From a candidate division FCPU426 bacterium (GTDB lineage: Bacteria > Oederibacteriota > Muellerivitia > Muellerivitales > Muellerivitaceae), in assembly GCA_030041545.1 (NCBI GenBank), contig JASHNQ010000049.1, positions 32,374 to 96,373 on the forward strand: DNA of 64,000 nt, given 5' to 3'. The position numbers were made by a program, and so were the translations under genes. The notes beneath the pieces were generated by a model, which saw only the letters and a program-made list of their open reading frames with translations, did no database searches and was not told the origin of the DNA. Positions 14,085 to 47,627 of the stretch are shown here, in pieces. Position 1 is the first letter of the stretch; the number at the start of each line of letters is the position of its first letter.

Positions 14085-14100
14085 CTTCGGCCCCCTTCGG

Positions 14101-15393
14101 TTATTCGACAATCATGCCTGCGGCAACTGTATTATTGTTGAGTTCGTCCATGAGGATAAAACTACCCGTAGCCCGATTGCGGGCGTAAGGATCGAAACAG
14201 ATAGGCTTAAGAGTCTGAAACTCGACCAGAGCTATGTCGTTCAATGTCAACGCTTGAGTACTCATCTTATCCAACGTTTTCATGTCTCGGACCCACCGAA
14301 TTCTCAACACCATGGCCTTAACTTCGGCGGTGGCCAATTTCAATAAATACTTGTCCTTCAACATTAGAGGTTCTTTAACCATCCAACACAAATAAGCCTC
14401 AAAACGATTTTGACAACGTGATTCATTACCGGGATAAATCAACATGTCCCCCCGGGAAATGTCGATCTCATTGGAGAGCCGGAGGGTCACACTCATGGGT
14501 GGGACCGCCTCATCCACTTCCCCCTCGAAGGTATCGATGGCCTTGATAGTAGAGGTCACACCGGAAGGCAGCGATATGATTTTCTGCCCCTTCCGCGCGA
14601 TGCCGGAGGCGATTTTGCCCGCGAAACCCCTGTAATCCGGGTTGGGCCGCAACACCAATTGGACGGGAAAGCGGAAATCGTCCAGGTTCCGGTCCCTGGC
14701 GATCTCGACGGTTTCCAGGTGGTCCAAAAGGGCCTTCCCGGAATACCAAGGGGTCGCGGCGCTTTTAACCGTAACGTTGTCCCCCTTGAGGGCCGAAATG
14801 GGGATAAAAACAAGGTCTTGCACCGAGGACCTTCCCGGATGCTCGCCGGAAAGTTCTTTAAAGAAAGCCTCGTAATCGCTTTTGATCTTTTCAAAGACGT
14901 CCTGTTTGAAATCAACTAAATCCATTTTGTTGATGGCCACCACGATATGGGGGATGCCCAGGAGCTTGGCGATATATCCATGCCGTTTGGACTGAACCAT
15001 CACCCCGTTGCGGGCGTCGATGAGGATAATGGCCAAATCGGCCGTGGAAGCGCCGGTGACCATGTTGCGGGTGTACTGCTCGTGGCCCGGCGTGTCCGCG
15101 ATGATGAACTTGCGCTTGGCCGTGGTGAAATACCGGTAGGCCACGTCGATGGTAATGCCCTGTTCCCGTTCCGCGGCCAACCCATCGGTGATCAGCGCGA
15201 AATCAATGTCGTCCCCCCCTTTTTTTTGGGTGGTCTTGCGGATGGCCTCCAGCTGGTCCTCGAAAACACCCTTGGAGTCGTAAAGCAGCCGCCCGATGAG
15301 GGTGGATTTGCCGTCATCCACCGATCCCGCGGTGGTGAGGCGCAAAAGGTCCATTTTTTCGTAGTTGAGAAGGGTTTTGGCGTCAAGGGTCAA
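14101..15393 (-). CDS. cysN: Sulfate adenylyltransferase subunit 1 (GTPase), not fused to APS kinase
   Basis: 430-aa ORF; G-domain motifs [18 protein letters not shown]; EF-Tu-like fold; start overlaps cysD stop (ATGA). Confidence 0.9.
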
Positions 15394-16313
15394 AAATAGC
15401 CTTCCTTTTTCTTCTGTTCCATGGAACTGTCGGAACCGTGGTCGATGATCCGGTTTTCCCTTTCGCTTTTGCGGGTCGAAATGAGGTCCTCAATAATGCC
15501 CCTCAGGTCGTGTACCTCAGGGTTGGATTGGATGGCCCCGGTACAGGACATGCAGCCGAGGGACCGGAATCTTACCCGCATGTCCTTGACCTCGTCCCCT
15601 GGCAGGATGGGGATATGGGAAACCCAGGGAATCAGCAGTTCCTTGCGTTTGATGATCTTGCGGGTGTGGGTGAAGTAGATAGGAACAACGGGGATCTTTT
15701 CCATCTCGATGTAGAGCCATATGTCCAGCTCGGTCCAGTTGGAGAGCGGGAAAACCCGGATGGATTCCCCCTCGTTGATCTTGGAGTTGTAGAGGTCCCA
15801 CAATTCAGGCCGCTGGTTCTTGGGGTCCCACTGGCCGAAGGAGTCCCGGAAGGAATAAACCCTTTCCTTGGCCCGGGATTTCTCCTCTTCCCGCCGGGCA
15901 CCGCCAAAAGCGGCGTCAAACCCGTGCTTGTTCAGCCCGTCCAAAAGGCCCTGGGTCTTAAGAAGGCCACAGCATTTCTGTACCCCATATTTAAAAGGGC
16001 TGGAACCCGCCGCGATGGCCTCCTCATTGCGTTCCACGATCAATTTGGCGCCGATTTCCTGGACGAACTTGTCCCGGAACTCGTACATCTCGGGGAATTT
16101 ATAGCCCGTATCCACGTGCATCAGGGGAAAGGGGATTTTGCCGGGGTGGAAAGCCTTCTGGGCCAGGCGCACCATGCAGCTGGAGTCCTTGCCCACGGAA
16201 TAAAGCATGACCGGGTTTTTGAACTCGGCCGCCACCTCCCGGATGATGTAAATACTCTCCGCTTCGAGCTGCTTGAGATGGGATAGGGTTTTGGAATCGG
16301 TTAAGGTCGGCAT
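15390..16313 (-). CDS. cysD: Sulfate adenylyltransferase subunit 2 (PAPS reductase-fold)
   Basis: 307-aa ORF; [16 protein letters not shown]…[19 protein letters not shown]… typical CysD. Confidence 0.9.
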
Positions 16314-16975: not shown

Positions 16976-18022
16976 TTACGGTTGTATTGGAAACACGTGG
17001 AAAGCCGTGATGGCGGCGTAAACCTCCTGGCCTTCCTTGAAGCCGCTGGCCAGGGCCACCCCCTTGGGGACTTGGGCGGAGATTGTTTTGTCTTCCCCGA
17101 TATCCAGCTTGTATTCGATCACCGTACCCCTAAAACGGGTCTTGGCGATCTTGGCCCTCACCTGCAGGGTCTCAAACTGGGCGGTGACGTAAACGTCGTT
17201 GGGGCGGAAGTAAATACGGATTTTCTGGTTCACCGGCAGGCCAGGGTTTACGGAAAAGCGGAAAGGGCCCCACACGGCCAATCCCTTTTCCGATATTTCG
17301 GTGTCGATGTAGTTGGTCTCGCCCACGAATTGGGCGATGAAATGGGTGGCGGGCTCATCGAAAATCTCGATGGGTGTGCCGTCCTGTTCGATCTCCCCGT
17401 GGTTCATGATGAGGATGCGGCTGGCCACTTCCATGGCCTCTTGCTGGTCATGGGTGACGAAAAGAGTGGTCATATTGGTCTCCTCATGGAGCCTCAAGAT
17501 CCACTCCCGCAGTTCCTCCCTCACCTTGGCGTCCAGGGCTCCGAAAGGCTCGTCCAAGAGCAAAACCTCGGGCCGGGGGGCCAGGGCCCTCGCCACGGCC
17601 ACCCGCTGGCGCTGGCCACCGGAGAGCTGGGAAGGATAGCGTTTTTCGTACCCGGTGAGCTGGATCAGGTCCAAAAGCTCGAAAACCCTGTTCCGGACTT
17701 CATCCTCCTTTTGTTTGCGAACCCGCAAGCCGAAGGCGATGTTCTCGAACACGGTCATGTGCTTGAAAAGGGCATAGTGCTGGAACACGAAGCCCACGTT
17801 GCGTTCCTTGGCCGAGGCATAGGTGGCTTCCCGTCCGGTCAGGTGGATCTCCCCTGAATCCGGCACCTCGAGGCCCGCGATCATCCGAAGCAGGGTGCTC
17901 TTCCCCGACCCCGAAGGGCCTAAAAGCGCGGTCAGGGAACCCGTCTCCAGCTTCGCGCTCACGTTATGGACGGCCTTGAAGCCGTTGTAATGCTTGGTCA
18001 GGCCCCGCACTTCGATGCTCAT
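16976..18022 (-). CDS. cysA: Sulfate/thiosulfate ABC transporter ATP-binding protein
   Basis: 348-aa ORF; Walker [10 protein letters not shown], signature [10 protein letters not shown], Walker B LLLDEPF; C-terminal TOBE-like domain. Confidence 0.9.
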
Positions 18023-18927
18023 GGGAGCTCGCTTTCAAAGCGCGGCGGCAGGACCTGGCGCTCTTTTTCGTACTTCAAGCCTACTAGCGTTTTGGCGATC
18101 AGGGTGAGGACGGCCAAAAAGGTCAAAAGGGAGGCCACGGCGAAAGCCGCCGTAAAGTCATAGTCGTTATAAAGAATTTCTACATGTAAGGGCAGCGTAT
18201 TGGTCAAACCCCGGATATGCCCCGAAACCACGGACACCGCCCCGAATTCCCCCATGGCCCTGGCGTTGCACAGGATGACCCCGTAAAGCAGGCCCCATTG
18301 GATGTTGGGCAGGGTCACCCTCCAGAAAATCTGCCAGCCATTGGCGCCTAAAACCATCGCCGCCTCTTCCTCTTCCGAACCTTGTTCTTGCATGAGGGGG
18401 ATAAGTTCCCGGGAAATGAAGGGGAAGGTCACGAAAATCGTGGCCAGCACGATCCCTGGAAGGGCGAAGATGATGTGCAGGTTGTGGGCCTGTAGCCAGG
18501 GTCCCAGCAACCCCTGCAGGCCAAACAGGAGGACGTAAACGAGGCCCGAAACCACCGGCGAGACCGTGAAAGGAAGGTCGATAAGGGTAATCAAAAGGTT
18601 TTTGCCCGGAAAACTAAATTTAGTAATAGCCCAAGCGGACACTATCCCAAAAGCCGAATTGAACCACACGGAAAAGAATGCCGCGATAAGGGTTAGTTTG
18701 ACGGCCGAAAGGGCGTCCGGCTCGCGGATCGCTCCAAAATAATAAGAGAACCCCTTATTCAACGCGGAAGTGAAAACCTCCGCCAGGGGCACCAGCAGGA
18801 ATAAGGCGATAAAAAGCAGGGCCACGGTAATGAGGATCCAACGGACCCACCGGGTTTCGGTCAAAGCGCGGGCCGGATCGGTTTTCCGGTCCCCTTTTAC
18901 GCTCACAATGAGTGTTTCTTGGGTCAC
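18019..18927 (-). CDS. cysW: Sulfate ABC transporter permease
   Basis: 302-aa ORF, six-TM ABC permease with EAA-like loop (…[22 protein letters not shown]…); 4-nt overlap with cysA. Confidence 0.85.
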
Positions 18928-18936
18928 GTGGTTTCC

Positions 18937-19767
18937 TTAATGGATCCGGTGCAAACCTGTCCGCGATTGCAACCAGTTGATGGTCAAAAGCAGGGTGAAG
19001 GAAATCGCCAGCATAACCACCCCGATCGAGGTGGCCCCGGCGTAATCGTATTGCTCCAGCTTGGTGATGATCAAAAGGGGAGTGATTTCGGTTTTCATGG
19101 GCATGTTGCCGGCGATGAAGACCACCGACCCGTATTCCCCCACTCCCCGGGCAAAAGCCAGGGAAAAACCCGTTATCCAAGCCGGGACCAGGGTGGGAAG
19201 AATAACCCTGGTAACGGTATACCAACGGTTGGCGCCCAAGCTGACCGCCGCCTTTTCCGTTTCCAAGTCCAAGGACTCAAGGACGGGTTGGAGTGTGCGA
19301 ACGACAAAAGGCAGGCCGATGAAGGTCAAAGCCACGACAACGCCCAGGGGAGTGTAAGCCACGGAAATCCCCAAAGGCTGGAGGCATTTCCCAATCCATC
19401 CATTTGGGGCGTAAATTGCCGTCAGGGTGATTCCCGCCACGGCCGTGGGCAGGGCAAAGGGTAAATCCACCATCGCGTCCACCAGTTTTCGGCCCGGGAA
19501 TTCATAACGGACGAGGACCCAGGCCACCACTGCCCCGAAGATGGAATTGATGATAGCTCCCACAAGGGAGGCCCCGAAGGTCAGCCGATAAGAGGCTAAA
19601 ACGCGGGGGCTGGTGACTTCCTGGACAAACTGGGCCCAGGTGAGGGTGACGGATTTCAGGATGAGGGCGGCCAAGGGGATGAGGACGATCAAGCCCAAGT
19701 AAGTCAGCGTAAAACCCATGGTCAGACCAAAACCCGGCAAAACGCCGGGAGAATTCCTAATTTTCAT
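18937..19767 (-). CDS. cysT: Sulfate ABC transporter permease
   Basis: ORF 18937..19785; permease motif …EKAAVSLGANRWYTVTRVILP…; start taken at internal Met adjacent to upstream HPr stop. Confidence 0.85.
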   Translation of the reverse strand: MKIRNSPGVLPGFGLTMGFTLTYLGLIVLIPLAALILKSVTLTWAQFVQEVTSPRVLASYRLTFGASLVGAIINSIFGAVVAWVLVRYEFPGRKLVDAMVDLPFALPTAVAGITLTAIYAPNGWIGKCLQPLGISVAYTPLGVVVALTFIGLPFVVRTLQPVLESLDLETEKAAVSLGANRWYTVTRVILPTLVPAWITGFSLAFARGVGEYGSVVFIAGNMPMKTEITPLLIITKLEQYDYAGATSIGVVMLAISFTLLLTINWLQSRTGLHRIH

Positions 19768-20036
19768 TTTTCGCTTTTTCCCCATCCCCTCAATAATTCA
19801 CTGATAGCCCGAATGGCCTCGGAAGCATCATCTCCATCGGCCGAAAACTCCAGTACCGTACCATAAATGGCTCCCAGCGTTAATAGTTCCAAAAGGCTCT
19901 TGGCATTCACGGGTAAACCGCCGTTGGAAACCAGGATACGGCTTTTAAACCGGCTGGCGGTCCTCACCAATTCCGCCCCGGCCCTCAAGTGCATGCCCAA
20001 CCGGTGGAGAATTGGAATTTTTTCAATGTTCTTCAT
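19764..20036 (-). CDS. HPr-family phosphocarrier-like protein (89 aa) embedded in the sulfate-transporter operon
   Basis: Translation MKNIEKIPILHRLGMHLRAGAELVRTASRFKSRILVSNGGLPVNAKSLLELLTLGAIYGTVLEFSADGDDASEAIRAISELL aligns along its length with PTS HPr (active-site His in G-x-H-x-R-A, conserved Ser in AKSLL). Confidence 0.75.
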   Translation of the reverse strand: MKNIEKIPILHRLGMHLRAGAELVRTASRFKSRILVSNGGLPVNAKSLLELLTLGAIYGTVLEFSADGDDASEAIRAISELLRGWGKSEK

Positions 20037-20149
20037 GGGATCTCCTTGGACCCCGCAAAAGGGTTTCTGAAATGCAGGGTGGATATCCATGGGCCCCTTA
20101 AGTTTGGAAAAAAACGGACTACGGAGAAAGCCTTTTCCCCGCGTCCTCT

Positions 20150-21169
20150 TTATTTTGATCCCGGCTGGTAAATCCGGTCGAAAACGCCGCCGTCTCCGAA
20201 AAAAGCGGACTGGGCCTTTTTCCAGCCTCCAAAAACCTTATCGATGGTGAAAAGCTTGATCTTGGGAAATTGTTGGGCGTACCGGGCCGCCACTTTCTTG
20301 TCCCGTGGCCGGTAATAGTTGCGGGCCGCAACATCCTGGCCTTCGGGTGAATAGAGGTATTCCAGGTAGGCCTTGGCCACTTCGGCGGTGCCGTGCTTTT
20401 CGGTGTTCTCGTCCACCCAGGCGACCGCGGGTTCGGCCAGGATACTGGTGGAAGGCGCCACGATTTCGAAGTTCCCCTGCCCAAGTTCCCCAATAGCCAG
20501 GTGCGCCTCATTCTCCCAAGCGATCAAAACGTCCCCGATTCCCCGTTCGACGAAGGTGGTGGTGGAACCCCGGGCTCCCGAGTCCAGGACCGCCACGTTC
20601 TTGTAGAGCTTGGCGACGAACTCGCGGGCCTTGTCCTCACTGCCGTACTTCCTTAAGGCATAGCCCCAAGCCGCCAGGAAGTTCCACCGGGCCCCACCGG
20701 AGGTTTTAGGATTGGGGGTGATGACCGACACGTCCGGCCGCGCCAAGTCATCCCAATCCTTGATATGCTTGGGGTTGCCCCTCCGGACCAAAAAAACGAT
20801 GGTGGAAGTATAAGGAGCACTGTTGTCGGGCAGCCTTTTCTGCCAATCCGCCGGCAGCAGTTGGGCCTTGGAAGCGATGGCGTCGATATCCCCGGCCAGG
20901 CCCAGGGTCGCCACGTCGGCCTCCAACCCATCAATGATGGCCCGGGCCTGCTTGCCCGAGCCGCCATTGGAGACGTTGACAACCACGTCCTGGCCCATCT
21001 TTTGCTTCCAGTAGTCGGCGAAAACCTTGTCGTAATCCTGGTAAAGCTCCCTCGTCGGGTCATAAGACACGTTTAAAAGGCTGACTGGGCCAGCGCCCTG
21101 GTTTTGGGCCAGGGCGCTTCCGGCGACAGCAAGAAAAAGGGTGATGGCTATTTGCTTAAACAGTTTCAT
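20150..21169 (-). CDS. sbp: Sulfate-binding periplasmic protein
   Basis: 339-aa ORF with signal peptide ([21 protein letters not shown]) and Sbp/CysP family body (…[13 protein letters not shown]…[19 protein letters not shown]…). Confidence 0.9.
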
Positions 21170-24151: not shown

Positions 24152-24973
24152 TCAATGGATTCTTTTCCGTTTCCAAAAAACCGCAATTCCAATGGCCCAA
24201 AACCAACAAAAAAACACCCTGAACAATTCCACACGGTTGCCGTGGGCGGCGACGGTTCCCACCAGGTTGATGCTGAAATGAAACAGGATGGCCGAAAGAA
24301 TGCTTCGGCGCGCGAGGTCGTAAATCCAGGTCATGACAACGGAAACGGGAAGGATGCCGGCAAAGAACAGGAAAAACCCAACCGTCCCTACGCCCAAGGT
24401 GGATTGGTAAGCACCCTTGAGAAAAAACAAGGGAAGGTGCCAGAGCCCCCACATCAACCCAAGGATCAAGCTGGCCCTCAGTGAACCGTGCCTGGCCCGC
24501 AAGCGGTCTAAGGCGTAGCCCCGCCAACCTAGTTCTTCGGGAACGGGCCCGAACAGGAACATGAAAACCAAGAAGACAGGAAGGGCCAGGGATTGGGGAA
24601 GAAACCCCTCGAAATAATGGATCGTGGTCAAATCGAGTTGAATGCCCCTGCCACCGATGAGGATGTCCACCCGACCCGCCAGCCAAGTCAAAAGCGGGAC
24701 CGCTAGGAGGGACAACTCCCAGCCCCGGAAATCCAGGCGTTTCCAATCCATGACTCTTCGCCAATAATCCCGTCGAACCTCATCTCCGCCTTCCCGGTAG
24801 GTGAAATAGATGCCGAAAACCATAGGGCCGATGCCGCCCAGGGCAAAACCCAGCTGGGTGATAAAATGCGTGGCATCCGGGCCCCAAAGGGCGGTTGGAA
24901 CCCAAAAGGCCCAGCTCCAAGCAAAAGTCAGGGTGAAGAAAAGCCAAGGGGAGGCCGCTGTCGTTTTTTTCAT
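24152..24973 (-). CDS. CPBP-family intramembrane metalloprotease (CAAX protease/Abi-like)
   Basis: 273-aa polytopic ORF with the three family motifs: PEELGWRGY (EExxxR), LWHLP (FxxxH), ILFHFSINL (HxxxN). Confidence 0.8.
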   Translation of the reverse strand: MKKTTAASPWLFFTLTFAWSWAFWVPTALWGPDATHFITQLGFALGGIGPMVFGIYFTYREGGDEVRRDYWRRVMDWKRLDFRGWELSLLAVPLLTWLAGRVDILIGGRGIQLDLTTIHYFEGFLPQSLALPVFLVFMFLFGPVPEELGWRGYALDRLRARHGSLRASLILGLMWGLWHLPLFFLKGAYQSTLGVGTVGFFLFFAGILPVSVVMTWIYDLARRSILSAILFHFSINLVGTVAAHGNRVELFRVFFCWFWAIGIAVFWKRKRIH

Positions 24974-25868: not shown

Positions 25869-26567
25869 TCAGGATGCGCAAAGGGGTTGAGGCGTTTCAG
25901 CCCCAACCTTGCCCTTGCCGCAAGCCTCACAGTTGGGATTCCGTTGTGGGGTGATTGACCGGGCTTCCCTTTTTTGGGCGTCCACCTTCCAAAGCCGGAA
26001 GGGTCCTTGGCCTTCCGCGAGCCGAAGGGCCTCATGGGCCTGGAGATAGCCGATAGCCTGTGAAAAGGAGCCTAGGACCCCCGCTTCCTGGCAGGTGGGC
26101 ATGGCGAAGGGCGGCGGAATTTTAGGGATCAGGCACCTCAGGCAGGCCGTCTTCCCAGGCAAAACCGGCAAGACTTGGCCCTCGAACTTGACCACGCCCG
26201 CATGAACATAGGGTTTTCCCAGATTCACGCACCAATCATTCAGGAAAAATTTCTTTTCCAGTCGGTCCAGCCCGTCGATAACAAGATCATATTCGGAAAG
26301 GATTTTTTCCGCGTTTTGCGCGCCCAATGCCTCCGGAATCAGGGCCGTCTTGCACCGGGAATAATGGTTTTTCAGGTAGTCCGCAGCCGCTTCAACCTTG
26401 AGTCGGCCCAAATCCTTCTCGGAATAAAGAATCTGCCGGTGCAGGTTGGAGGGTTCCACCTTATCGGGGTCCATCAAGCCCAGGTTTTCCACGCCGGCTT
26501 CCGCCAGGGCCAGGGACGCGGGACACCCCAGTCCACCCACCCCTACCACTAAAATCCGTTTCTTCAT
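25869..26567 (-). CDS. ThiF/MoeB/HesA-family E1-like adenylyltransferase (232 aa)
   Basis: MKKRILVVGVGGLGCPASLALAEAGV… Rossmann GxGxxG; …NLHRQ…; family-typical length. Confidence 0.8.
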   Translation of the reverse strand: MKKRILVVGVGGLGCPASLALAEAGVENLGLMDPDKVEPSNLHRQILYSEKDLGRLKVEAAADYLKNHYSRCKTALIPEALGAQNAEKILSEYDLVIDGLDRLEKKFFLNDWCVNLGKPYVHAGVVKFEGQVLPVLPGKTACLRCLIPKIPPPFAMPTCQEAGVLGSFSQAIGYLQAHEALRLAEGQGPFRLWKVDAQKREARSITPQRNPNCEACGKGKVGAETPQPLCAS

Positions 26568-26574
26568 CGCTTCC

Positions 26575-26763
26575 TCACATCAAACTGAAGACCATTATGA
26601 CGGCGCCGAGGCCGATCAAGCCGTAAGAGACGGCGAACAGGACCCAGTATGGCCATGGGACGCCTTTTTCATTTTGGGCCGGGTATAAGTCGAAGAGGCG
26701 GGAGAACCGGTTGATCCCAAAACCCAGGATGGCCAGGCAAAGCCCGCCAAAAAATTGATCCAT
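26575..26763 (-). CDS. Small membrane protein (62 aa), hypothetical
   Basis: Internal Met of ORF 26575..26928; two hydrophobic segments (MDQFFGGLCLAILGFGI…YWVLFAVSYGLIGLGAVIMVFSLM); the 5' part of the ORF overlaps the upstream gene. Confidence 0.25.
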   Translation of the reverse strand: MDQFFGGLCLAILGFGINRFSRLFDLYPAQNEKGVPWPYWVLFAVSYGLIGLGAVIMVFSLM

Positions 26764-26774
26764 CTGGCGCTCCC

Positions 26775-28259
26775 TTAAAAGCCAGCCCCATTGGAGTCTT
26801 CTTGTCCTGGCGCGGTCTTGATAAGGACAAGTTGATTGATATTCTCTCCATCCTTCGTGTAAAGGACCGTATATTGCCCTGGAGGCGCGTCTTTCCCGCC
26901 ATCGTCCTTGCCGTCCCATTGCACCCATTCGTCTTGTTCCGCCACAACGCGCTTCTCAAACAAATTTCTCAAATGGGCGCCGGTATTATCCACGACTTCC
27001 AGCCGGTAAATGCCCGGGCCGTCGGCGAAACTAATGTAGATATTAGCATCCATCTTTTGGAAAACAACGGTTTGGGCCTTGGCCGCGGTGGGTAAGTCGG
27101 CCACAGCGGTTGTTGGGGTGGTTGCCACTACCGTCGGCGCCGCGGCAGGCGCACTCATTTTATAAGGATCCGCCAGGCTTGTGGTTTCGAAACCAGGAAT
27201 GAGCGTGGGAGTCGGCAGTAAGCGGCGGGCTTTTCTTAAAAGAGGCTGGATCGCCGGTTGGGTGGTGAAAGTGGGTGTCGGACAGGACAACGGCGTCCAA
27301 GCCGATATATACCCCAAAGCCCCGGTTGGCTTCGGGGTGCTCGTGTCCCGGGGAATGGTGGTCCAAGTGGCTGTCGGCCACGAAGTAAAGGTGACAGTTG
27401 GCATAAGCATCGGTTTCCAAACCAAAACCGGCGCCGGCAACGGTGTCTCAGTCGGCGAAGGCGCAAAGCTGGGGGGGAGCATGATGCGTTGGGGCAGTAT
27501 GGGAATTTCCGTTGGCGTGGGTGGCGGAACCTTGTACGGCCGTCCGGATGCGGCGTCCATCGGGGCCGGCGCGCAAACCGGGTTGGAAGCGATATCGAGG
27601 TGAAATTCCCTGCGGTAAAGATGCTTCTCACCCTCGTATTGGACCTTGAAAGTTTCTCCGGCGGCGGAAAGAAATTGGATGGGCTGCCCGGTTTCAGGAT
27701 CCACCAGGGATGCCACCCCCGGGATCGCCGCGCCAAGGGCGAAAGGCGCGGCCCAAGTCGCATCGTGAAAGAACCGCCGTTGCCAATCCCGGGGCTCTTC
27801 CATTTCCCGGTTTGGAAGGTAATAGGCTTTTTGATCTCCCGTATCGTTGCTGGACAGGGCCATTTCCGTCCCGTCGGAAAAGCGAAGCCTCAGGATGTAG
27901 GCCAATCCGATTTGGCCGTTTAGCGGCCGCGGGTTGTGGTAGGCATTGTCGTTCGCAATGGCCAGGACATTATCGTTTTGGAAGTAGCAGAGGTGTTTCG
28001 GCAGGCATTGGACGGTTTGAAAGCCCTTGGGCTCGGGCGTGGTGGGCTGGCTTTCCCGGATGGGGATGCCGTTAAGCCAAACATCCGCCCAGCCATCAAC
28101 CGCGAGGTAAAGGGTGGCCGACTTTAAGTAGGTAGAAGAAACCTGTGCTAGCGCCGAAGAACAAAACAGAGCGGAAAGCGGTATCCATCCCCATAGAATC
28201 AGTTTTGAGTTTTGAGTCCTAAGTTTTGAGTTATTGATGTTTTTGAACCTCCGGTTCAA
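26775..28259 (-). CDS. Secreted protein with N-terminal signal peptide, long Pro/Thr-rich linker and C-terminal FlgD-like Ig / sorting-type domain
   Basis: 494-aa ORF; signal peptide …LSALFCSSALAQ; about 150-aa P/T-rich low-complexity segment; C-terminus …GIYRLEVVDNTGAHLRNLF…WDGKDDGGKDAPPGQYTVLY… matches the FlgD-Ig/Por-type C-terminal domain pattern. Confidence 0.6.
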   Translation of the reverse strand: MNRRFKNINNSKLRTQNSKLILWGWIPLSALFCSSALAQVSSTYLKSATLYLAVDGWADVWLNGIPIRESQPTTPEPKGFQTVQCLPKHLCYFQNDNVLAIANDNAYHNPRPLNGQIGLAYILRLRFSDGTEMALSSNDTGDQKAYYLPNREMEEPRDWQRRFFHDATWAAPFALGAAIPGVASLVDPETGQPIQFLSAAGETFKVQYEGEKHLYRREFHLDIASNPVCAPAPMDAASGRPYKVPPPTPTEIPILPQRIMLPPSFAPSPTETPLPAPVLVWKPMLMPTVTFTSWPTATWTTIPRDTSTPKPTGALGYISAWTPLSCPTPTFTTQPAIQPLLRKARRLLPTPTLIPGFETTSLADPYKMSAPAAAPTVVATTPTTAVADLPTAAKAQTVVFQKMDANIYISFADGPGIYRLEVVDNTGAHLRNLFEKRVVAEQDEWVQWDGKDDGGKDAPPGQYTVLYTKDGENINQLVLIKTAPGQEDSNGAGF

Positions 28260-31381: not shown

Positions 31382-31483
31382 TATTTGCCGCCAGAACAAT
31401 AAATGGCGCCATTGAAAATGTTCAGCCCAAAGAAAAGGCAAAAAACTGAATTATTTTGAAATTTGGGTCGTTATGATGGCCCC

Positions 31484-31888
31484 ATGAAAGTCATCCCAAT
31501 CCATACCGATCAACGCGAGCAAATTCTGGACATCACGGCCCCAATCCGCAATCTCGTGGCCCAGGGCGCCTTCTCATCAGGGGTTCTCTTTCTTTTTTGC
31601 CCCCACACGACCGCAGCTATCACCATCAACGAGAATGCCGATCCCGACGTCAAAAGGGATATTCTCTACCACCTCAAGAAAGCCATCCCCCAATCGCCCG
31701 ATTTCAAGCATTTCGAGGACAACGCCGATGCCCACATTAAGTCCGTGTTAACGGGATTTTCGTTGGTTTTAATCGTGGAAAACGGAAAAATCCAACTGGG
31801 CCGCTGGCAGGGGATTTACTTCTGCGAGTTCGACGGCCCCAAGGACCGGGAGGTTTGGGTGAAAGCGGTACCGGATCAAGGGGTTTGA
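31484..31888 (+). CDS. yjbQ: YjbQ/UPF0047-family protein (secondary thiamine-phosphate synthase-like)
   Basis: ORF 31463..31888; …ITAPIRNLVAQGAFSSGVLFLFCPHTTAAITINENADPDV…HIKSVLTGFSL… family pattern; start taken at MKVIPIH. Confidence 0.75.
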   Translation: MKVIPIHTDQREQILDITAPIRNLVAQGAFSSGVLFLFCPHTTAAITINENADPDVKRDILYHLKKAIPQSPDFKHFEDNADAHIKSVLTGFSLVLIVENGKIQLGRWQGIYFCEFDGPKDREVWVKAVPDQGV

Positions 31889-31900
31889 AATACCCCGTTG

Positions 31901-32854
31901 TTACTGTTTCTTTTCGTCCCTTTCGAATTCCTCTTCCAAACTGAAATACCTTTCACCCATGTCGCAACAAAGGGTGACCACACGGGCCTCAGGCCCCAGT
32001 TTCTTGGCGACCTTGACGGCCACTGCCACGTTGGCTCCCGAGGAAATACCCAAAAGCAGTCCTTCTTCCCGGGCCAACCGCTTGGTCATCAGGAAGGCTT
32101 CCTTGTCATCCACCGTGATCATCTCGTCTACAATCGACCGGTTCAAGACCGGAGGCACGAAACCCGCCCCGATGCCCTGGATTCGGTGGATGCCAGGTTT
32201 TCCCCCTGAAAGCACCGCCGAGGCCGCCGGTTCCACTCCCACTATCTGTATTTTGGGGTTCTTGGCCTTGAAATATTCCCCTACCCCCGTGATGGTTCCA
32301 CCTGTCCCGATGCCCGCCACAAAGGCGTCCAGCCTTCCCTTCGTATCCTTTTCGATCTCGGGCGCCGTGGTCCTTTTGTGCGCCTCCGGGTTGGCCCGGT
32401 TGGCGAATTGCTCCGGCATGAAATAGTCCGGGTGCTGCTCTTTGATTTCCTTGGCCTTTCGGACGGCCTCCGCCATCAATCCTTGGGCGGGGGTTAAAAC
32501 CAATTCGGCGCCATATGCCCTCAAAAGCACCCGGCGCTCCTGGCTCATATCCTCGGGCATGACGAGGATCAACCGGTAACCCCTTTGGGCGCAAACCAAA
32601 GCCAGCCCGATGCCCGTGTTGCCGCTGGTGGGCTCCACCAAGGTTCCGCCGGGTTTTACGAGGCCGCGTTTTTCCGCATCCTCGATCATGGCCAGGGCGA
32701 TTCGGTCCTTCACGCTGCCGCCGGGATTGTAAAACTCCAGCTTGCAGAGGATTTGGGCCCCTCCCCTTTCCGGAATGCGTTGGAGTTTCAGCAGGGGGGT
32801 GTTGCCGATGATTTGGGTGATGTCGGTGGCCAAGGGATAACGGTTGTAGGTCAT
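31901..32854 (-). CDS. Cysteine synthase (CysK/CysM type, fold-II PLP enzyme), last gene of sulfur-carrier operon
   Basis: ORF 31901..32896; PLP lysine motif …SVKDRIALAMI…, GNTGIGLA, …GIGTGGTITG…; start at MTYNRYP overlaps upstream stop (ATGA). Confidence 0.9.
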   Translation of the reverse strand: MTYNRYPLATDITQIIGNTPLLKLQRIPERGGAQILCKLEFYNPGGSVKDRIALAMIEDAEKRGLVKPGGTLVEPTSGNTGIGLALVCAQRGYRLILVMPEDMSQERRVLLRAYGAELVLTPAQGLMAEAVRKAKEIKEQHPDYFMPEQFANRANPEAHKRTTAPEIEKDTKGRLDAFVAGIGTGGTITGVGEYFKAKNPKIQIVGVEPAASAVLSGGKPGIHRIQGIGAGFVPPVLNRSIVDEMITVDDKEAFLMTKRLAREEGLLLGISSGANVAVAVKVAKKLGPEARVVTLCCDMGERYFSLEEEFERDEKKQ

Positions 32855-33459
32855 GGGGTTACAACCGCCCCTTCCTCCAACAGCCGCGCCGGGCATTTGC
32901 CGGAGGCATGGACTTCATGATGGAAGGACACTCCCGAATCAAGGGAGGTGACCCATACCTTGTTTTCCAAGGGTGTGCTTCCCTTCAAAACCCACTGTAA
33001 CGCTTCGGAGGCCGCCAGGGCGCCCAACAAGCGTTGGACCGTAGGGGTTCCGCGGGTGAAGGCCTTGGGATTGAGAGTTTCAAAACATTCCAGGCACGGG
33101 CAGTGGCCGCCTTGATGGGAAGCGGCGAAAAGGGCGTAGCCACTTCCCGCGCACCAGGCGAAAAGGGAAGGCATGCGGTTTTTCCGGAGCAGGCGGCTGG
33201 CGCGCCGACGGAAGGCGGAATCTTCCGTGAGAACCAGGGTGAGGTCCGCTTCCCCGGTTGGAGCTTGAGGGACGTCGGTTTTCCATTGAACAAGGTGGGA
33301 AACACCGGTGGACTTTAAGGCGATCTCGGCCGCCGTAAGGATCGCGCCTTCCCCCACCAGAAGAATCCGGGCGGTGGCCCACTTGGTTTGGCCTTCCACA
33401 CCGACTTCGGGAAGGATGACTTGGCGGGAATATCTATCGGAAGGGCCGGTTTCTCCCAT
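32851..33459 (-). CDS. ThiF-like protein with degenerate nucleotide-binding loop and C-terminal CxxC…C zinc motif
   Basis: RYSRQVILPEVGVEGQTKWATARILLVGEGAIL aligns with ThiF RYSRQILL…GQ…VLIIGLGGLG but GxGxxG is replaced by GEGAIL; CPCLEC…CP at C-terminus; only about 200 aa. Confidence 0.65.
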   Translation of the reverse strand: MGETGPSDRYSRQVILPEVGVEGQTKWATARILLVGEGAILTAAEIALKSTGVSHLVQWKTDVPQAPTGEADLTLVLTEDSAFRRRASRLLRKNRMPSLFAWCAGSGYALFAASHQGGHCPCLECFETLNPKAFTRGTPTVQRLLGALAASEALQWVLKGSTPLENKVWVTSLDSGVSFHHEVHASGKCPARLLEEGAVVTP

Positions 33460-33463
33460 CCTC

Positions 33464-33709
33464 TTACTCGACGATGTCTTTAACGATAGGATTGACGTCG
33501 ATTCCCTGTTTGGAAAGATCGCCAAGGGCCTTTTGCACTTCCGTCTCCTCCCCCTCGATCTCCATTTGGACGTATCCGAAACCCTTGGTTATGGAGGCCC
33601 GGCGGATGTTGACCACAATGTCATATTTCTTGATCATCTTGGAAAGCACCGGCTCGGTGACCAGCTCGGTGGGATAATCCAGTTCGATGAGTTTTTTAAC
33701 TTCGGCCAA
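33464..33709 (-). CDS. Stand-alone NIL-domain protein (81 aa)
   Basis: MAEVKKLIELDYPTELVTEPVLSKMIKKYDIVVNIRRASITKGFGYVQMEIEGEETEVQKALGDLSKQGIDVNPIV aligns well with the C-terminal NIL domain of MetN. Confidence 0.65.
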   Translation of the reverse strand: MAEVKKLIELDYPTELVTEPVLSKMIKKYDIVVNIRRASITKGFGYVQMEIEGEETEVQKALGDLSKQGIDVNPIVKDIVE

Positions 33710-33783
33710 GGAGACCTCCGAGGAAGATGAAATTCGAACAGGGGAACAGGCGATTTCCGGCGCCTATTATCGCCTTTCTCCTT

Positions 33784-34071
33784 TCACCTCTTCACCTTTC
33801 CCCCGGCGATAGCCGGGACGATGGAAACCTGGTCCCCGGACTTGACGGCCGTGGCTTCCCCTTGCAGGAAACGGATGTCCTCTTCGTTCAAGTAAATGTT
33901 CACGAAGCGGCGAATTTTGCCGTTCTCATCACAAAGCCGGTCCTTCAAACCGTTGTAGTTATTCCCCAAGTTGTTGATCAGGTCGGAAATGGTGGCCCCT
34001 TCGGCATTCACCTCCGCCTGGTTGTTGGTCAGGTTCCTCAAGGGGGTTGGAATGAGAACTTTCACGGCCAT
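33784..34071 (-). CDS. MoaD/ThiS/CysO-family sulfur-carrier protein with C-terminal Gly-Gly followed by a 4-residue extension (KVKR)
   Basis: [10 protein letters not shown]…[17 protein letters not shown]; AGGAGG RBS 7 nt upstream of ATG; MoaD-like pattern throughout. Confidence 0.75.
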
Positions 34072-34323
34072 GGAAACTCCTCCTAAAACGAATGGTACCC
34101 TCATTTCCATTTTAAAATCGGGCAAAGCCCGGTGAAGTTATGAGGGTGATGCAGCTTTCAATTAGGGGGCCTTCGGCCCCGTTTTCATGGATGGATAAAC
34201 TGCATAAGGCAGGATTATGACGAAAGCCCCCCTTGATTTCCAGGGGAAAACATTGAAAGTCCGGCGCGGTCTGGTTTCCTGTCAAGTTACCGGAATAAAC
34301 CTTCCCCTATCGTGGACAGCGGC

Positions 34324-34746
34324 TTATTTCAACGTTTTGTATTTCAGGTTCAGCATGGTTTGGAGCGATCCCCGATGGTGGATTTCGTGATCCAGATTCC
34401 CCCGCATCAGGATAAGCCACTTGCTGGTTTTTCCCATGACTTCCCAGTCGTCTACTTCTTGGGCCTACTCGTTGTCCGGCATTCTCTTAAGAAGTTCGGC
34501 TTTTTCTTTTCCGAGTTTTTCGAAGTCCCGCAGATGCCGGTTCCATTCCTCCGGTTTTCCTTCCCCCGGTTGGATGCTGGCCCTGGGAATTTGCTTTTCG
34601 TTTTTAAGGACGGCCAAGGCCCATCGGTCGGCATCCACTAAATGTTTCAAAAGATCCGTAAAACTCAATTGTCCGGCGGAGGGCCGCCACCCCCGGTCTT
34701 CCGAAACCACTTGTTTAAATCTTTTCAGGCTGGATTCCCGAACCAT
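34324..34746 (-). pseudogene. DinB/YfiT-family (DinB_2) gene interrupted by a single in-frame TAG codon (at 34465-34467); pseudogene or read-through candidate
   Basis: ORF 34465..34746 (93 aa) stops at TAG; same frame continues AQEVDDWEVMGKTSKWLILMRGNLDHEIHHRGSLQTMLNLKYKTLK to a TAA at 34324-34326; the downstream part carries the family-defining HEIHHRG motif; combined length 140 aa fits the family. Confidence 0.6.
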
Positions 34747-34828
34747 TCCCGAGAATGGCCAGCCTTTCCCCTTCAGTCATTATTGCCTCCCATCGTGGAA
34801 ATGGCCCGATCCATAACGAGCCAAACAT

Positions 34829-37183: not shown

Positions 37184-37510
37184 ATGACACCTTATATCGA
37201 CGCCTCGAACTCCGACCATCGTTTCTTAAAAAAAGTAGGCCGGAAGATCGGGGAGGTCCGCGCCCAAAAGGGCTATACCCAGTTCCAATTGGCGGAGCAA
37301 GCCGGGGTTTCCATCCAAATGGTCCAATATTGGGAGTCGGGCCGGAACATCACGTTGAAGACCCTTTACAACCTTGCTTTTCAACTGGACTGCCCCGTTG
37401 AGAATTTCCTGAAGGAGCCCCGCAACTTGACGGCTCAAAGGGGCAGGCCCCGCCTTAAAGGATTAAAGGCCGGCAAAAAAAAAGTCCGTAAGGAAAAAAG
37501 CCCTGGGTGA
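37184..37510 (+). CDS. XRE-family HTH transcriptional regulator (108 aa) with basic C-terminal tail
   Basis: …RAQKGYTQFQLAEQAGVSIQMVQYWESGRNITLKTLYNLAFQL…; divergent from GH127 gene. Confidence 0.75.
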   Translation: MTPYIDASNSDHRFLKKVGRKIGEVRAQKGYTQFQLAEQAGVSIQMVQYWESGRNITLKTLYNLAFQLDCPVENFLKEPRNLTAQRGRPRLKGLKAGKKKVRKEKSPG

Positions 37511-38092: not shown

Positions 38093-39322
38093 TCAGGCCG
38101 GGACCAGTTGGGTGGCCTCAAAGGCGGCGAGGTTGGGCTGGATGACCTTCACTTCCCTCAAATGGCCTGTCACGGCTTCCTGGGTTTTCAGGCCCGTTCC
38201 GGTCACGTAAGCCACGGTCACGGCATCCGGATCCAAGGCTCCCGATCCGGCCAGCTTTTTCAGGCATCCGATGGTGACGCCGCCGGCGGTTTCCGCGAAT
38301 AGTCCTTCGGTGCGGGCCAACAGTTTGATGCCTTCCACGATTTCCTCGTCCGTGACCATCTCGGCCCCGCCCTTGGAATCGGCGATGGTCCTTAAGGCGT
38401 AAAAACCGTCGGCGGGATTGCCGATGGCCAAGGACTTGGCGATGGTATTGGGCTTGACCGGCCGGAAAGTGTCGGTCTTGGCTTTATAAGCGGTGGTCAC
38501 AGGCGAACAGCCGGCGGCCTGGGCGCCGAAAACTCTCATGGGCTTGTTTTCAATGAGGCCCACTTTGATGAACTCCTGGGTCCCCTTCCAAATCTTGGTC
38601 AAAAGGGACCCGGAAGCCACGGGGACAACGACTTGGTCCGGTGCTTTCCAGCCCAACTGCTCCGCCACTTCGAACCCGAGGGTTTTGGAGCCCTCGGCGT
38701 AATAGGGCCTCATATTAATGTTCACGAAGGCCCATTTATGCTTGCCGGCGATTTCGCTGCAAAGACGGTTGACGTCGTCATAATTGCCGTTGACCCCGAT
38801 GAGGTTCGGGTCGTAGATCAGCGAGGCCGTCACTTTGCTGGTTTCCAGGTTGGAGGGAATGAACACAAAGCGTTTCATGCCGCCCTTGGCCCCATAGGCC
38901 GAAACCGCGTTGGCTAGGTTGCCGGTCGAGGCGCAGGCTAAGGTATCGAAACCCAGTTCCAGGGCCCGGGTGGAGGCCACGGCCACCACGCGATCCTTGA
39001 AGGAATGGGTGGGGTTGGCGCAGTCGTTCTTCACGTAAAGTCGGGAAAGGCCCAATTCCTCGCCCAGCCGTTCGGCGCGGATCAAGGGCGTATAACCTTC
39101 CTCCAGGGTGTTGTAGCGGGTTCCCTCGACGGGCAGGAACTCCCGGTAGCGCCAGATATTCAGCGGGCGGGCAGCGATCTTTCCGCGGGAAACATCTGTC
39201 TTGATCTTGTCGTAATCATAGGCTGCTTCCAAGGGCCCAAAGCAGAACTCACAGACGTATTTGGCCGTTTTTTCGTATTCCTGGCCGCATTCCCTGCATT
39301 TCAAAGACTTTACGTAACCCAT
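38093..39322 (-). CDS. Threonine-synthase-family PLP enzyme with N-terminal zinc-ribbon (C-x2-C…C-x2-C); paralogue of thrC at 46505
   Basis: Start at MGYVKSLKCRECGQEYEKTAKYVCEFCFGPLEA; PLP-Lys motif …ANPTHSFKDRVVAVA…; 409 aa; RBS ggaaggg upstream. Confidence 0.8.
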   Translation of the reverse strand: MGYVKSLKCRECGQEYEKTAKYVCEFCFGPLEAAYDYDKIKTDVSRGKIAARPLNIWRYREFLPVEGTRYNTLEEGYTPLIRAERLGEELGLSRLYVKNDCANPTHSFKDRVVAVASTRALELGFDTLACASTGNLANAVSAYGAKGGMKRFVFIPSNLETSKVTASLIYDPNLIGVNGNYDDVNRLCSEIAGKHKWAFVNINMRPYYAEGSKTLGFEVAEQLGWKAPDQVVVPVASGSLLTKIWKGTQEFIKVGLIENKPMRVFGAQAAGCSPVTTAYKAKTDTFRPVKPNTIAKSLAIGNPADGFYALRTIADSKGGAEMVTDEEIVEGIKLLARTEGLFAETAGGVTIGCLKKLAGSGALDPDAVTVAYVTGTGLKTQEAVTGHLREVKVIQPNLAAFEATQLVPA

Positions 39323-39652
39323 CGTTTTTCCCTTCCGCTCCCGGAAAAGGCCTCGGCTCAAAAAAAAAGGCCCCATCCTGAGATGGAAGCCTTTGAGGTT
39401 TGGATTTCCATCTCTCATCTTTCCCCGGATCGTCGTCCCTTTCCGGAGCAGGATTTGGCACCTGGCGACCCTTTTCGGTCCGGTTGCCGTGGCATCAACG
39501 GGCCTGTCCCTCCGCCACTCGCGATAAGAGCGTTTAATTGTTCAATGAATATTACTCAGTGCGCCTTTCCCTGTCAAGGCCACCGCCATAGCCGGTGGCG
39601 GGTGGCTGTTAGTGGATGGTAAAGGCTACCCGCCATCCGCTACAAGCTGCCA

Positions 39653-46504: not shown

Positions 46505-47566
46505 TTAAAGCTTTAAAGACTTTAGGATTTCACTCATTTCCGGCTTGATCACCGTGGGTTTGGTGCTTCTCATCACCGCCGTGTCCGGATCCTTGAGCCC
46601 ATGGCCGGTCAGGGTACAGACGATACGCCTTTCACCGTCGACGAAGTACCCTTCCTTGCTCTTCTTGATGACCCCGGCCAAGGAAGCGGCGGAGGCGGGC
46701 TCGCAGAAAATACCTTCCATCGAAGCCAGCATCTCGTAGGCTTCCAGGATCTCTTCATCCGTGACGGCCTCGATCAAGCCCCGGGACTCGTCACGGGCCG
46801 CTTCGGCGCTCTTCCAGGAAAAAGGGTTGCCGATCTTGATGGCCGTGGCGATAGTTTGGGGGTCCTCAATGATATGCCCCTCCACAATGGGGGCCGCCCC
46901 GGCGGCCTGGAACCCACACATGCGGGGCAGCCGCTTGGACTTGCCTTTTTGCCGGTATTCCTTATAGCCTTTCCAATAGGCGGTGATATTGCCCGCGTTT
47001 CCCACCGGGATGGCGTGATATTCGGGGGCGTCACCGATAGTATCAACAATCTCAAAAGCCGCGGTTTTCTGCCCCTCGATGCGGTAGGGGTTATTGGAAT
47101 TCACCATGGTGATCGGGTGCTTGTCCGCCAGTTCGCGGGTGAGCTTCAAGGCCTGGTCAAAGCTTCCTTCCACCGCCAGCACCCTGGCGCCGTAGATCAT
47201 GGATTGGGCCAACTTCCCCAAAGCGATGGAGCCGTGGGGCAGGAGGACGGCGCAGGAAATGCCCGCGTGGGCCGAATAGGCGGCCGCCGAGGCCGAGGTA
47301 TTGCCTGTGGAGGCGCAAATAACCGCCTTGGAACCATCTTCCAACGCCTTGGAGATGGCCATGGTCATGCCCCGGTCCTTGAAGGAGCATGTCGGGTTCA
47401 ACCCCTCGAACTTGAAATAGACCTTTAGGCCGTTGCCAAGATTTTGGGAAATGCGCGGCCCGTAAAGCAACGGCGTATCACCCTCCTTGAGGGTGACAAC
47501 GGGCGTTTTTTCGGTAACCGGCAGGTAGGGCCGGTATTCTTCGATAAGTCCTTTCCAATACGCCAT
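46505..47566 (-). CDS. thrC: Threonine synthase
   Basis: ORF 46505..47686; start taken at MAYWKGLIEEYRPYLPV; PLP Lys …NPTCSFKDRGMT…; about 353 aa, compact bacterial type. Confidence 0.9.
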   Translation of the reverse strand: MAYWKGLIEEYRPYLPVTEKTPVVTLKEGDTPLLYGPRISQNLGNGLKVYFKFEGLNPTCSFKDRGMTMAISKALEDGSKAVICASTGNTSASAAAYSAHAGISCAVLLPHGSIALGKLAQSMIYGARVLAVEGSFDQALKLTRELADKHPITMVNSNNPYRIEGQKTAAFEIVDTIGDAPEYHAIPVGNAGNITAYWKGYKEYRQKGKSKRLPRMCGFQAAGAAPIVEGHIIEDPQTIATAIKIGNPFSWKSAEAARDESRGLIEAVTDEEILEAYEMLASMEGIFCEPASAASLAGVIKKSKEGYFVDGERRIVCTLTGHGLKDPDTAVMRSTKPTVIKPEMSEILKSLKL

Positions 47567-47627
47567 TTGCTTTGCCTTTGTTTTAGATTTTGGCTGTCGG
47601 CTACGAGCTGTCAGCCGTGAGCTGCCG

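Follow-up and report, generated by a model that had tools for sequence, protein, structure and literature searches.

A 64,000-nucleotide stretch of contig JASHNQ010000049.1 (the window, throughout), from the candidate phylum FCPU426, an uncultured lineage of soil and peat, carries a compact operon encoding a CysO-type sulfur-carrier protein, a stand-alone NIL-domain protein, a catalytically degenerate ThiF paralogue (dThiF) and a cysteine synthase. Elsewhere in the window lie an active-type ThiF (cThiF) and a paralogue of threonine synthase (ThrC) preceded by an S-adenosylmethionine (SAM) riboswitch. What does this set of genes do? A general function in sulfur delivery from a protein thiocarboxylate is well supported by homology and genomic context. 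With moderate confidence, and arguing from sequence, we read the locus as the conserved core of protein-thiocarboxylate sulfur delivery for sulfur amino-acid synthesis in FCPU426, in which an asymmetric pair of E1-like proteins would activate the carrier, two pyridoxal phosphate (PLP) enzymes would draw on it and the NIL protein would act as a regulator. The roles given here to dThiF and to the NIL protein, and the use of the carrier by the cysteine synthase, are hypotheses. The reading that fits best is a variant of the protein-thiocarboxylate pathways already known (CysO/CysM and MetM/MetO), set apart by a synthase of CysK type, a NIL protein that stands alone, a dead E1 that bears an arginine finger matched to an active E1 that has none, and no neighboring JAMM hydrolase. 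An earlier note on this DNA had said that the operon looked like an undescribed variant of carrier-mediated sulfur amino-acid biosynthesis. A literature search turned up no published account of this gene combination, and to that extent the claim stands, but the MetM/MetO-like part was already known.

A conserved four-gene operon

The four genes are read from the minus strand in the order carrier (33784..34071; 95 amino acids (aa), ThiS/MoaD fold, with an ATG start preceded by AGGAGG), NIL protein (33464..33709; 81 aa, TTG start), dThiF (32851..33459; 202 aa) and CysK-type PLP cysteine synthase (31901..32854; 317 aa). The earlier note had placed four minus-strand genes here, and their open reading frames (ORFs) together with profile matches to ThiS, NIL, ThiF and PALP bear this out. 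Its view that all four are translationally coupled fits two of the junctions, since dThiF starts 4 nucleotides (nt) after the NIL gene and the dThiF stop overlaps the CysK start as ATGA, but not the third, where 74 nt separate the carrier gene from the NIL gene. A hairpin sought in that 74-nt spacer was no better than those of shuffled sequences (z = -0.71).

Conservation of this ThiS-NIL-ThiF-cysteine synthase order, which had been proposed as a check on the earlier reading, was seen in each of the 21 distinct related contigs that are long enough to show it. One of them, from a low-GC lineage (locus L026), keeps the order although its dThiF is 27.5% identical to that of the window. Because the order recurs in 21 contigs including so divergent a lineage, chance does not account for the arrangement, nor are the ORFs mis-called. 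The idea that the genes are mis-called fragments was likewise rejected on the strength of approximately 70 full-length dThiF homologs, 137 NIL homologs (the best 120 of which are all at least 72% identical) and a confident structural model of dThiF. Five loci (L007, L008, L009, L012 and L018) contain the four-gene core but, in the flanks covered, neither a ThrC paralogue nor cThiF nor a SAM riboswitch; in L007, which was read in detail, the core is surrounded by unrelated genes. The four genes therefore constitute the invariant unit.

The components differ in their rates of divergence. Median identity to the window is 86.6% for the ThrC paralogue, 85.5% for the carrier and 83.3% for CysK, followed by 75.3% for the NIL protein, 74.6% for cThiF and 51.9% for dThiF. 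Exact-sequence database look-up with the window's own NIL and dThiF proteins gave no match, and word-index searches with the NIL protein and cThiF returned FCPU426-family proteins only.

A CysO-type carrier with a variable tail

The carrier matches Pfam ThiS (PF02597, E = 3.2e-18) and narrowly passes the MoaD-family model TIGR01687 (49.9 bits against a cut-off of 49.5). Its best matches in the PDB are Mycobacterium tuberculosis CysO (3dwg_C, 2.8e-23) and a CysO homolog (4n6e_B, 1.2e-20); matches to MoaD-type proteins (4e-10), SAMP1 (approximately 1e-3) and ThiS (0.58) are far weaker. The protein ends in PAIAGG followed by the tail KVKR. A MoaD/ThiS carrier with a Gly-Gly and KVKR terminus had been recognized earlier from the letters of the sequence, and CysO now proves to be its best solved relative. 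PAIAGG is kept in 19 of 19 carrier orthologs recovered by the scan, always with 1-7 variable residues after the Gly-Gly, the tails being K, R, I, C, F, LS, LF, IY, MTV, LNLF, IHPNS and SGENKDI. Such a tail would be the signature of a precursor that requires trimming. We picture the carrier being synthesized in this extended form, with its 1-7 residues past Gly-Gly, and then presumably cut back by a peptidase.

Which enzyme would trim it? We scanned for the JAMM motif (HxH...SxxD) in the window and in the flanks, up to 10 kb on each side, of 25 related loci, and found none in a credible ORF, in agreement with the earlier statement that no JAMM protease is encoded here. The matches that did arise fell in implausible ORFs, among them a single 300-aa ORF without a family match, and were discarded. 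Two other candidates were set aside: a Peptidase_S51 gene in L001, which is not conserved beside the operon, and an Rce1-like CPBP/CAAX intramembrane protease (24152-24973, approximately 0.9 kb downstream of cThiF), whose position is not conserved in relatives.

Precursor tails are also typical of conjugated modifiers, and with 58 bits the carrier narrowly misses the SAMP1 cut-off of 60, besides passing the archaeal MoaD-family model. Could it work with the E1-like proteins in a SAMP-like protein-modification system, or in one for molybdopterin, thiamine or tRNA thiolation? We consider this very improbable. The best relatives of the carrier are CysO and a CysO homolog, its invariant neighbor is CysK, and its ancestral neighbors include cysDN and the SAM-riboswitch-controlled ThrC paralogue. 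Furthermore, no MoaE, ThiG, TtuA/NcsA, E2 or JAMM gene was seen among the neighbors examined or scanned for, and one relative (L030) has a separate thiS-thiG-thiE cluster.

Two complementary ThiF proteins

The third gene of the operon had been described as encoding a degenerate, non-canonical ThiF-like protein, an assessment that alignment to MoeB upholds: the E1 fold is retained and the ATP-binding motifs are gone. Pfam ThiF is matched (E = 7e-8) by residues 32-78 only of the longer ORF form, covering the first ~47 positions of the model. The AlphaFold2 model of dThiF (predicted local distance difference test score, pLDDT, 86.7) nevertheless has a complete E1 fold, and its best Foldseek match is MoeB (1jw9_B; template modeling (TM) score 0.74, E = 9e-12). 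In alignment with MoeB, dThiF is missing the third GxGxxG glycine, the DxD...SNLxRQ segment, K86, D130 and C187; G-E-G-A-I-L stands in place of the nucleotide loop, the stretch from DxD through SNLxRQ to the lysine is deleted, and D130 is not conserved. The second CxxC of the Cys4 zinc site is reduced to a single cysteine, leaving a CPCxEC...KC cluster in which C120, C122, C125 and C189 are invariant within the core family. What dThiF keeps is the arginine finger at its N-terminus (RYSRQ), in which R12 and Q13 are invariant; R12 aligns with R14 of MoeB and R11 of ThiF. By its sequence and predicted structure, dThiF is an inactive yet folded E1 paralogue. Twelve cluster representatives of the family were found at E <= 1e-30 among 1.84 billion proteins.

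The active-type ThiF/MoeB E1 of the window, cThiF (25869..26567, minus strand; 232 aa), has the opposite set of features. The earlier note had pointed to a second, canonical ThiF/MoeB nearby; the gene is there and its catalytic motifs are complete (GVGGLG, DPDKVEPSNLHRQ, K, D and CxxC...CxxC), but it is not canonical at its N-terminus, where the arginine-finger helix is missing. Its alignments begin at MoeB residue 32 and Uba4 residue 33-34, that is, at the Rossmann loop. An in-frame stop lies five codons upstream of the cThiF ATG, and all 11 of the covering NCBIfam E1 models without an N-terminal domain begin 20-43 positions before the cThiF start. No equivalog cut-off is reached, and on the MoeZ model cThiF spans positions 43-262 of 392 only, with no C-terminal rhodanese domain. 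The same division holds across the phylum: RxxRQ ahead of the G-loop occurs in none of 120 cThiF representatives, and [FY]xRQ is found in 68 of 70 dThiF proteins. A small predicted membrane protein gene (26575-26928, with the end LIGLGAVIMVFSLM) directly precedes cThiF, its stop 6 nt from the cThiF start; the same gene immediately precedes cThiF in L001 (18150-18344).

MoeB R14 and ThiF R11 are arginine fingers donated by the neighboring subunit, and in yeast Tcd1-Tcd2 the degenerate subunit gives its arginine finger to the active one (PMC13139853). Are the two FCPU426 proteins partners of this kind? In the window they lie about 6 kb apart. Their homolog lists have at least 12 contigs in common. 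The compact locus L026 reads riboswitch, ThrC paralogue, carrier, NIL, dThiF, CysK, cThiF, cysD, cysN. In L029 (205-1025), a contig of 1 kb without carrier, NIL or CysK genes, GreA is followed by a distant dThiF (P0199) and a cThiF-like gene, the latter two overlapping by 4 nt. In an unrelated GC-rich lineage, L034 (4778-8929) combines a finger-less ThiF, a CysO-like carrier, CysM and a degenerate ThiF starting QIERYSRQ, and continues with a variant radical SAM protein (NF045502), a Na/sulfate symporter and ATP sulfurylase; its carrier ends exactly at Gly-Gly, and it has no NIL gene. A further locus, L032 (3-1925), contains ThiF, ThiS and a degenerate ThiF, with the N-terminus of the active ThiF cut by the contig start. 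The CysO/CysM clusters of the GC-rich lineage (L031, L032 and L034) often adjoin the NF045502 radical SAM protein, a sulfate symporter and ATP sulfurylase.

From the complementarity of motifs, the linkage of the genes and the recurrence of the arrangement in L034, we infer an asymmetric cThiF-dThiF E1. In this scheme cThiF would adenylate the carrier C-terminus, and cThiF and dThiF would form an active/inactive dimer in which dThiF supplies its finger in trans, much as in the heterodimeric E1s of eukaryotes and in Tcd1-Tcd2 of yeast. As cThiF carries no rhodanese domain, sulfide or persulfide derived from the sulfate-assimilation genes of the region would probably attack the acyl-adenylate. 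More broadly, bacterial CysO-type systems in at least two unrelated lineages may use an obligate asymmetric E1 with the finger donated in trans by a dead paralogue, a prokaryotic two-gene counterpart of the inactive/active eukaryotic E1s to which FCPU426 adds coupling to CysK and the NIL protein. We put this generalization forward tentatively, as somewhat more doubtful than probable.

A different role for dThiF would make it a non-catalytic adaptor rather than the partner of cThiF: it would bind the carrier by means of its remaining E1 fold and hand the thiocarboxylate to CysK, which is without CysM docking features, with the NIL protein in the complex. The gene is always operonic and overlaps CysK through ATGA, even where no cThiF is present in the flanks covered, which fits such a role. 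Inactive E1-like binding modules do exist, and the structural matches of dThiF include the heterocyclases 4v1t and 4bs9, alongside a weak match to TIGR03882. The dThiF core group also has a conserved C-terminal EEGAxVTP tail, but the tail is absent from the divergent members. An adaptor function further leaves unexplained that, of all the E1 elements of dThiF, the arginine finger is conserved best and is the very one lost from cThiF, and that dThiF and cThiF adjoin without CysK in L029. We therefore regard it as improbable. The tail was also considered as a CysE-like CysK-binding peptide and rejected; peptides of that type require a terminal Ile, and the dThiF tail ends Thr-Pro and is missing in divergent members.

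Two PLP enzymes proposed to use one carrier

The cysteine synthase belongs to the PALP family (E = 6.4e-84), with readable SVKDR and TSGNTG motifs. It scores 443.8 bits on the cysK model TIGR01139 (cut-off 350.95) and 310.7 bits on the CysM model TIGR01138, below the cut-off of 394.2. M. tuberculosis CysK1 (2q3b, 7e-107) is matched far better than Escherichia coli CysM (2bht, 1.3e-75), and no recognized M. tuberculosis CysM entry appears among the 60 listed PDB matches, all of which are at 4.2e-75 or better. By sequence, the enzyme is of CysK type and not of CysM type. The earlier expectation of a CysM-like, carrier-using synthase is thus right about the fold-II PLP enzyme and wrong about its sequence class, which is that of an ordinary CysK, one half of an outcome that the note had named as refuting its reading.

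The second PLP enzyme is a zinc-ribbon threonine-synthase paralogue and candidate MetM (38093..39322, minus strand; 409 aa; TIGR00260 thrC 291.7 bits, PRK08197 304.3 bits). Its leader contains a SAM-I riboswitch (39412..39530, minus; Rfam RF00162, 82.8 bits, E = 4.8e-18). A promoter-like site, TTGACA-17-TAATAT, precedes the riboswitch (39549..39577, minus; 10 of 12 in a consensus scan), and a terminator-like hairpin with a T-run (39371..39388, minus), lying between the aptamer and the start of the paralogue, is likely the expression platform; both of these are pattern matches only. A SAM riboswitch was found in all 12 tested related loci that contain the 5' end of the ThrC paralogue, and in seven relatives (L005, L011, L014, L017, L019, L020 and L026) the ThrC paralogue stands directly before the carrier, with a gap of 28-108 nt. 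An ordinary thrC is present in the window as well (46505..47566; 353 aa with MAYWKGLIEE taken as the start); homoserine dehydrogenase lies immediately upstream of it and aspartate kinase downstream (46505-48950 and 45252-46487). Citramalate synthase follows at 43573-45210, making up a block of aspartate-family and branched-chain amino-acid genes. Because of its SAM riboswitch, its adjacency to the carrier in relatives and the presence of a separate true thrC, the ThrC paralogue looks like the MetM of a MetM/MetO route, membership resting on gene context. The earlier note had seen a ThrC paralogue nearby that could supply a missing step; the gene is indeed present, but its riboswitch and its place beside the carrier in seven relatives make it more than a helper that happens to be near.

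In the window, the ThrC paralogue and the carrier are approximately 4 kb apart (38093 and 34071), with a TPR gene, an opposite-strand ORF (37184-37510) and a GH127 gene inserted between them. As the opposite-strand ORF lies upstream of GH127, the carrier would be transcribed separately here. Two weak promoter-like sites were found by consensus scan upstream of the carrier gene (34109..34242, minus), and a riboswitch scan of that same interval found none. The spacer between GH127 and the carrier (34072-34828) is approximately 757 nt long in the window versus approximately 165 nt in L001, and it holds a 93-aa DinB_2-like fragment (34465-34746; Pfam E = 3.3e-4, below cut-off) that is probably a gene remnant.

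In the pathway we propose, the co-translated CysK-type enzyme would use the carrier thiocarboxylate to make cysteine, and the SAM-riboswitch-controlled, MetM-like ThrC paralogue would combine the thiocarboxylate with O-phosphohomoserine to give homocysteine. Must both enzymes draw on the carrier? It could instead serve the MetM-like homocysteine synthase alone, CysK being a sulfide-using O-acetylserine sulfhydrylase co-transcribed for the shared sulfide supply or to provide cysteine as a sulfur donor. The class of the synthase favors this alternative: it exceeds the cut-off of the cysK equivalog model, its best matches of solved structure are classic CysK enzymes and not CysM, and known CysO partners are of CysM type, as in L034. 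The SAM riboswitch, moreover, governs the whole cluster in compact relatives. Set against this is the observation that CysK, and not the ThrC paralogue, stays with the carrier everywhere, including five loci without a ThrC paralogue within 7 kb, and that it is translationally coupled to dThiF. As the PLP enzyme that accompanies the carrier in every locus, CysK is linked to it invariantly, which argues against an incidental association. On balance we judge the restriction of the carrier to homocysteine synthesis unlikely, though it deserves serious weight, and retain the proposal that both enzymes are supplied.

The NIL protein

The second gene product matches Pfam NIL (PF09383, E = 1.7e-15, 57.1 bits against a cut-off of 24). 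Its AlphaFold2 model, of moderate confidence (pLDDT 70.6), has beta-alpha-beta-beta-alpha-beta topology and is best matched by the C2 domain of E. coli MetN (3tui_C; TM score 0.81, root-mean-square deviation 1.9 Å), so that the resemblance to the MetN C-terminus suspected earlier is found in both family and predicted fold. ACT and PII-like domains are the next structural matches. Across 121 homologs, all positions but I35 of the stretch NIRRASITKGFGY (motif N-I-R-R-A-S-I-T-K-G-F-G-Y) are at least 99% conserved. The Asn of the N-I-x motif is invariant, and we take it to be the equivalent of the MetN ligand residue. In JGI the homologs bear one of two names, "methionine ABC ATPase" or "aspartate-semialdehyde sulfurtransferase ferredoxin", and these two known NIL contexts are both tied to methionine or homocysteine. 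The NIL protein may thus be a small ligand-sensing subunit, regulatory or adaptor in function, that binds methionine or homocysteine. Of the steps we propose, this is the weakest inference.

Surrounding genes

Sulfate-assimilation genes lie on the minus strand of the same region. They comprise the sulfate adenylyltransferase genes cysD (15390..16313; NCBIfam CysD, 453.5 bits) and cysN (14101..15393; NCBIfam CysN, 555-597 bits) and a sulfate ABC transporter (16976..21169) with two permeases (BPD_transp_1 twice), a sulfate-binding protein (20150..21169; NF008022, 522 bits) and an ATPase (16976..18022; ABC_tran and TOBE_2). In L026, cysDN comes directly after cThiF and is contiguous with the operon; judged against that compact cluster, the window therefore looks like an expanded form of an ancestral sulfur-assimilation cluster. 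An O/P-type porin of the phosphate-selective family (21194-22690) stands on the same strand beside the gene for the sulfate-binding protein and may have been co-opted as an anion porin for the uptake of sulfate. Directly downstream of cysN, with a 10-nt overlap, is a 497-aa ORF (12618-14111) with no Pfam or NCBIfam match. Next to the operon, a plus-strand YjbQ-family gene (31463-31888; TIGR00149, 151 bits; NCBI name secondary thiamine-phosphate synthase) converges on the CysK gene, the two sharing a hairpin at 31880-31896; this neighbor is kept in L001, L003, L022 and L023 only.

Points against the proposed pathway

Several observations weigh against the pathway as we draw it. In the CysO and MetO systems, JAMM/Mec both trims the carrier and releases the amino acid, and neither the window nor the flanks yielded such a hydrolase. 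For MoeB and ThiF the arginine finger has been reported as dispensable (PMC13139853); cThiF could therefore act alone, and the conserved RQ of dThiF could have a structural role. No cThiF lies within 8 kb of the core in five loci. The dThiF protein evolves much faster than its neighbors, with a median identity of 52% versus 75-87%. In L030 (8001-8648) it stands alone beside an integrase and transposases, without the EEGAxVTP tail, and in L025 (7782-8387) a decayed remnant directly follows GreA; dThiF has therefore been lost or eroded in some lineages. CysK is by sequence an ordinary O-acetylserine sulfhydrylase A and may simply use free sulfide. Finally, the role given to the NIL protein rests on the likeness of a predicted fold in a model of moderate confidence.

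Relation to known systems and significance

How does the FCPU426 system compare with those already described? Like the CysO/CysM/Mec/MoeZ route of M. tuberculosis, it has a clear CysO homolog encoded beside a PLP cysteine synthase of fold II, and it too is linked to sulfate assimilation. It differs in that the synthase is of CysK type, the E1 has neither rhodanese domain nor N-terminal helix, no JAMM (Mec) gene was found nearby, and the locus further encodes a NIL protein and a dead E1 paralogue. The carrier here extends beyond Gly-Gly, with which the M. tuberculosis CysO chain in the PDB terminates.

The system of Wolinella succinogenes (HcyS/HcyD/HcyF/MetY), described by Krishnamoorthy and Begley in 2011, is reported to remove a carrier residue after the Gly-Gly by means of the JAMM protease HcyD, to use a ThiF-type E1 without rhodanese and an O-acetylhomoserine sulfhydrylase (a fold-I PLP enzyme), and to be linked to sulfate assimilation and methionine. 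It is not known to have a NIL protein, dead E1 or CysK; residues after Gly-Gly, a rhodanese-less E1 and the sulfate/methionine link are what it has in common with FCPU426.

MetM of Streptomyces albulus, as outlined in two secondary accounts (GapMind 2026; PMC12172450; Hasebe et al. 2024 via these), converts O-phosphohomoserine and the carrier thiocarboxylate to homocysteine, with a SAM riboswitch upstream of metM, and the MetM/MetO route is described in the first of them as using Mec and MoeZ (GapMind 2026). Compared by description, the FCPU426 locus is alike in its ThrC homolog behind a SAM riboswitch, the adjoining carrier in relatives and the separate true thrC. It is unlike in that Mec and MoeZ types were not seen here and in that the carrier is also tied to CysK, the NIL protein and dThiF.

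The heterodimeric E1s NAE1-UBA3, SAE1-SAE2 and yeast Tcd1-Tcd2 (PMC13139853 for the last) join an inactive, finger-bearing subunit to an active one, and the same complementarity of motifs is seen between dThiF and cThiF. Here, however, the pairing is proposed from sequence and gene context, the substrate would be a sulfur carrier, the active subunit has lost its whole N-terminal helix, and the proteins are bacterial. The NIL protein belongs to the same Pfam family, and has the same predicted fold, as MetN C2 and the NIL-ferredoxin proteins of the DUF39 homocysteine pathway; unlike them, it stands alone at 81 aa, with no ABC ATPase, ferredoxin domain or DUF39 partner.

Why would such a variant matter? 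The protein-thiocarboxylate routes to cysteine and homocysteine so far described use homodimeric E1s of ThiF/MoeZ type and a JAMM hydrolase. If the proposed pathway is true, the duplication and subfunctionalization behind the eukaryotic heterodimeric E1s would have arisen in sulfur-carrier E1s as well, and cThiF and dThiF would provide a simple two-protein system for probing an arginine finger supplied in trans. The NIL protein would represent a third independent link between this domain and methionine or homocysteine metabolism, and a handle on NIL function outside MetN. For FCPU426 itself, it would mean that automatic annotation, which would read these genes as threonine synthase, cysteine synthase A and MoeB, mis-predicts how the phylum synthesizes methionine.

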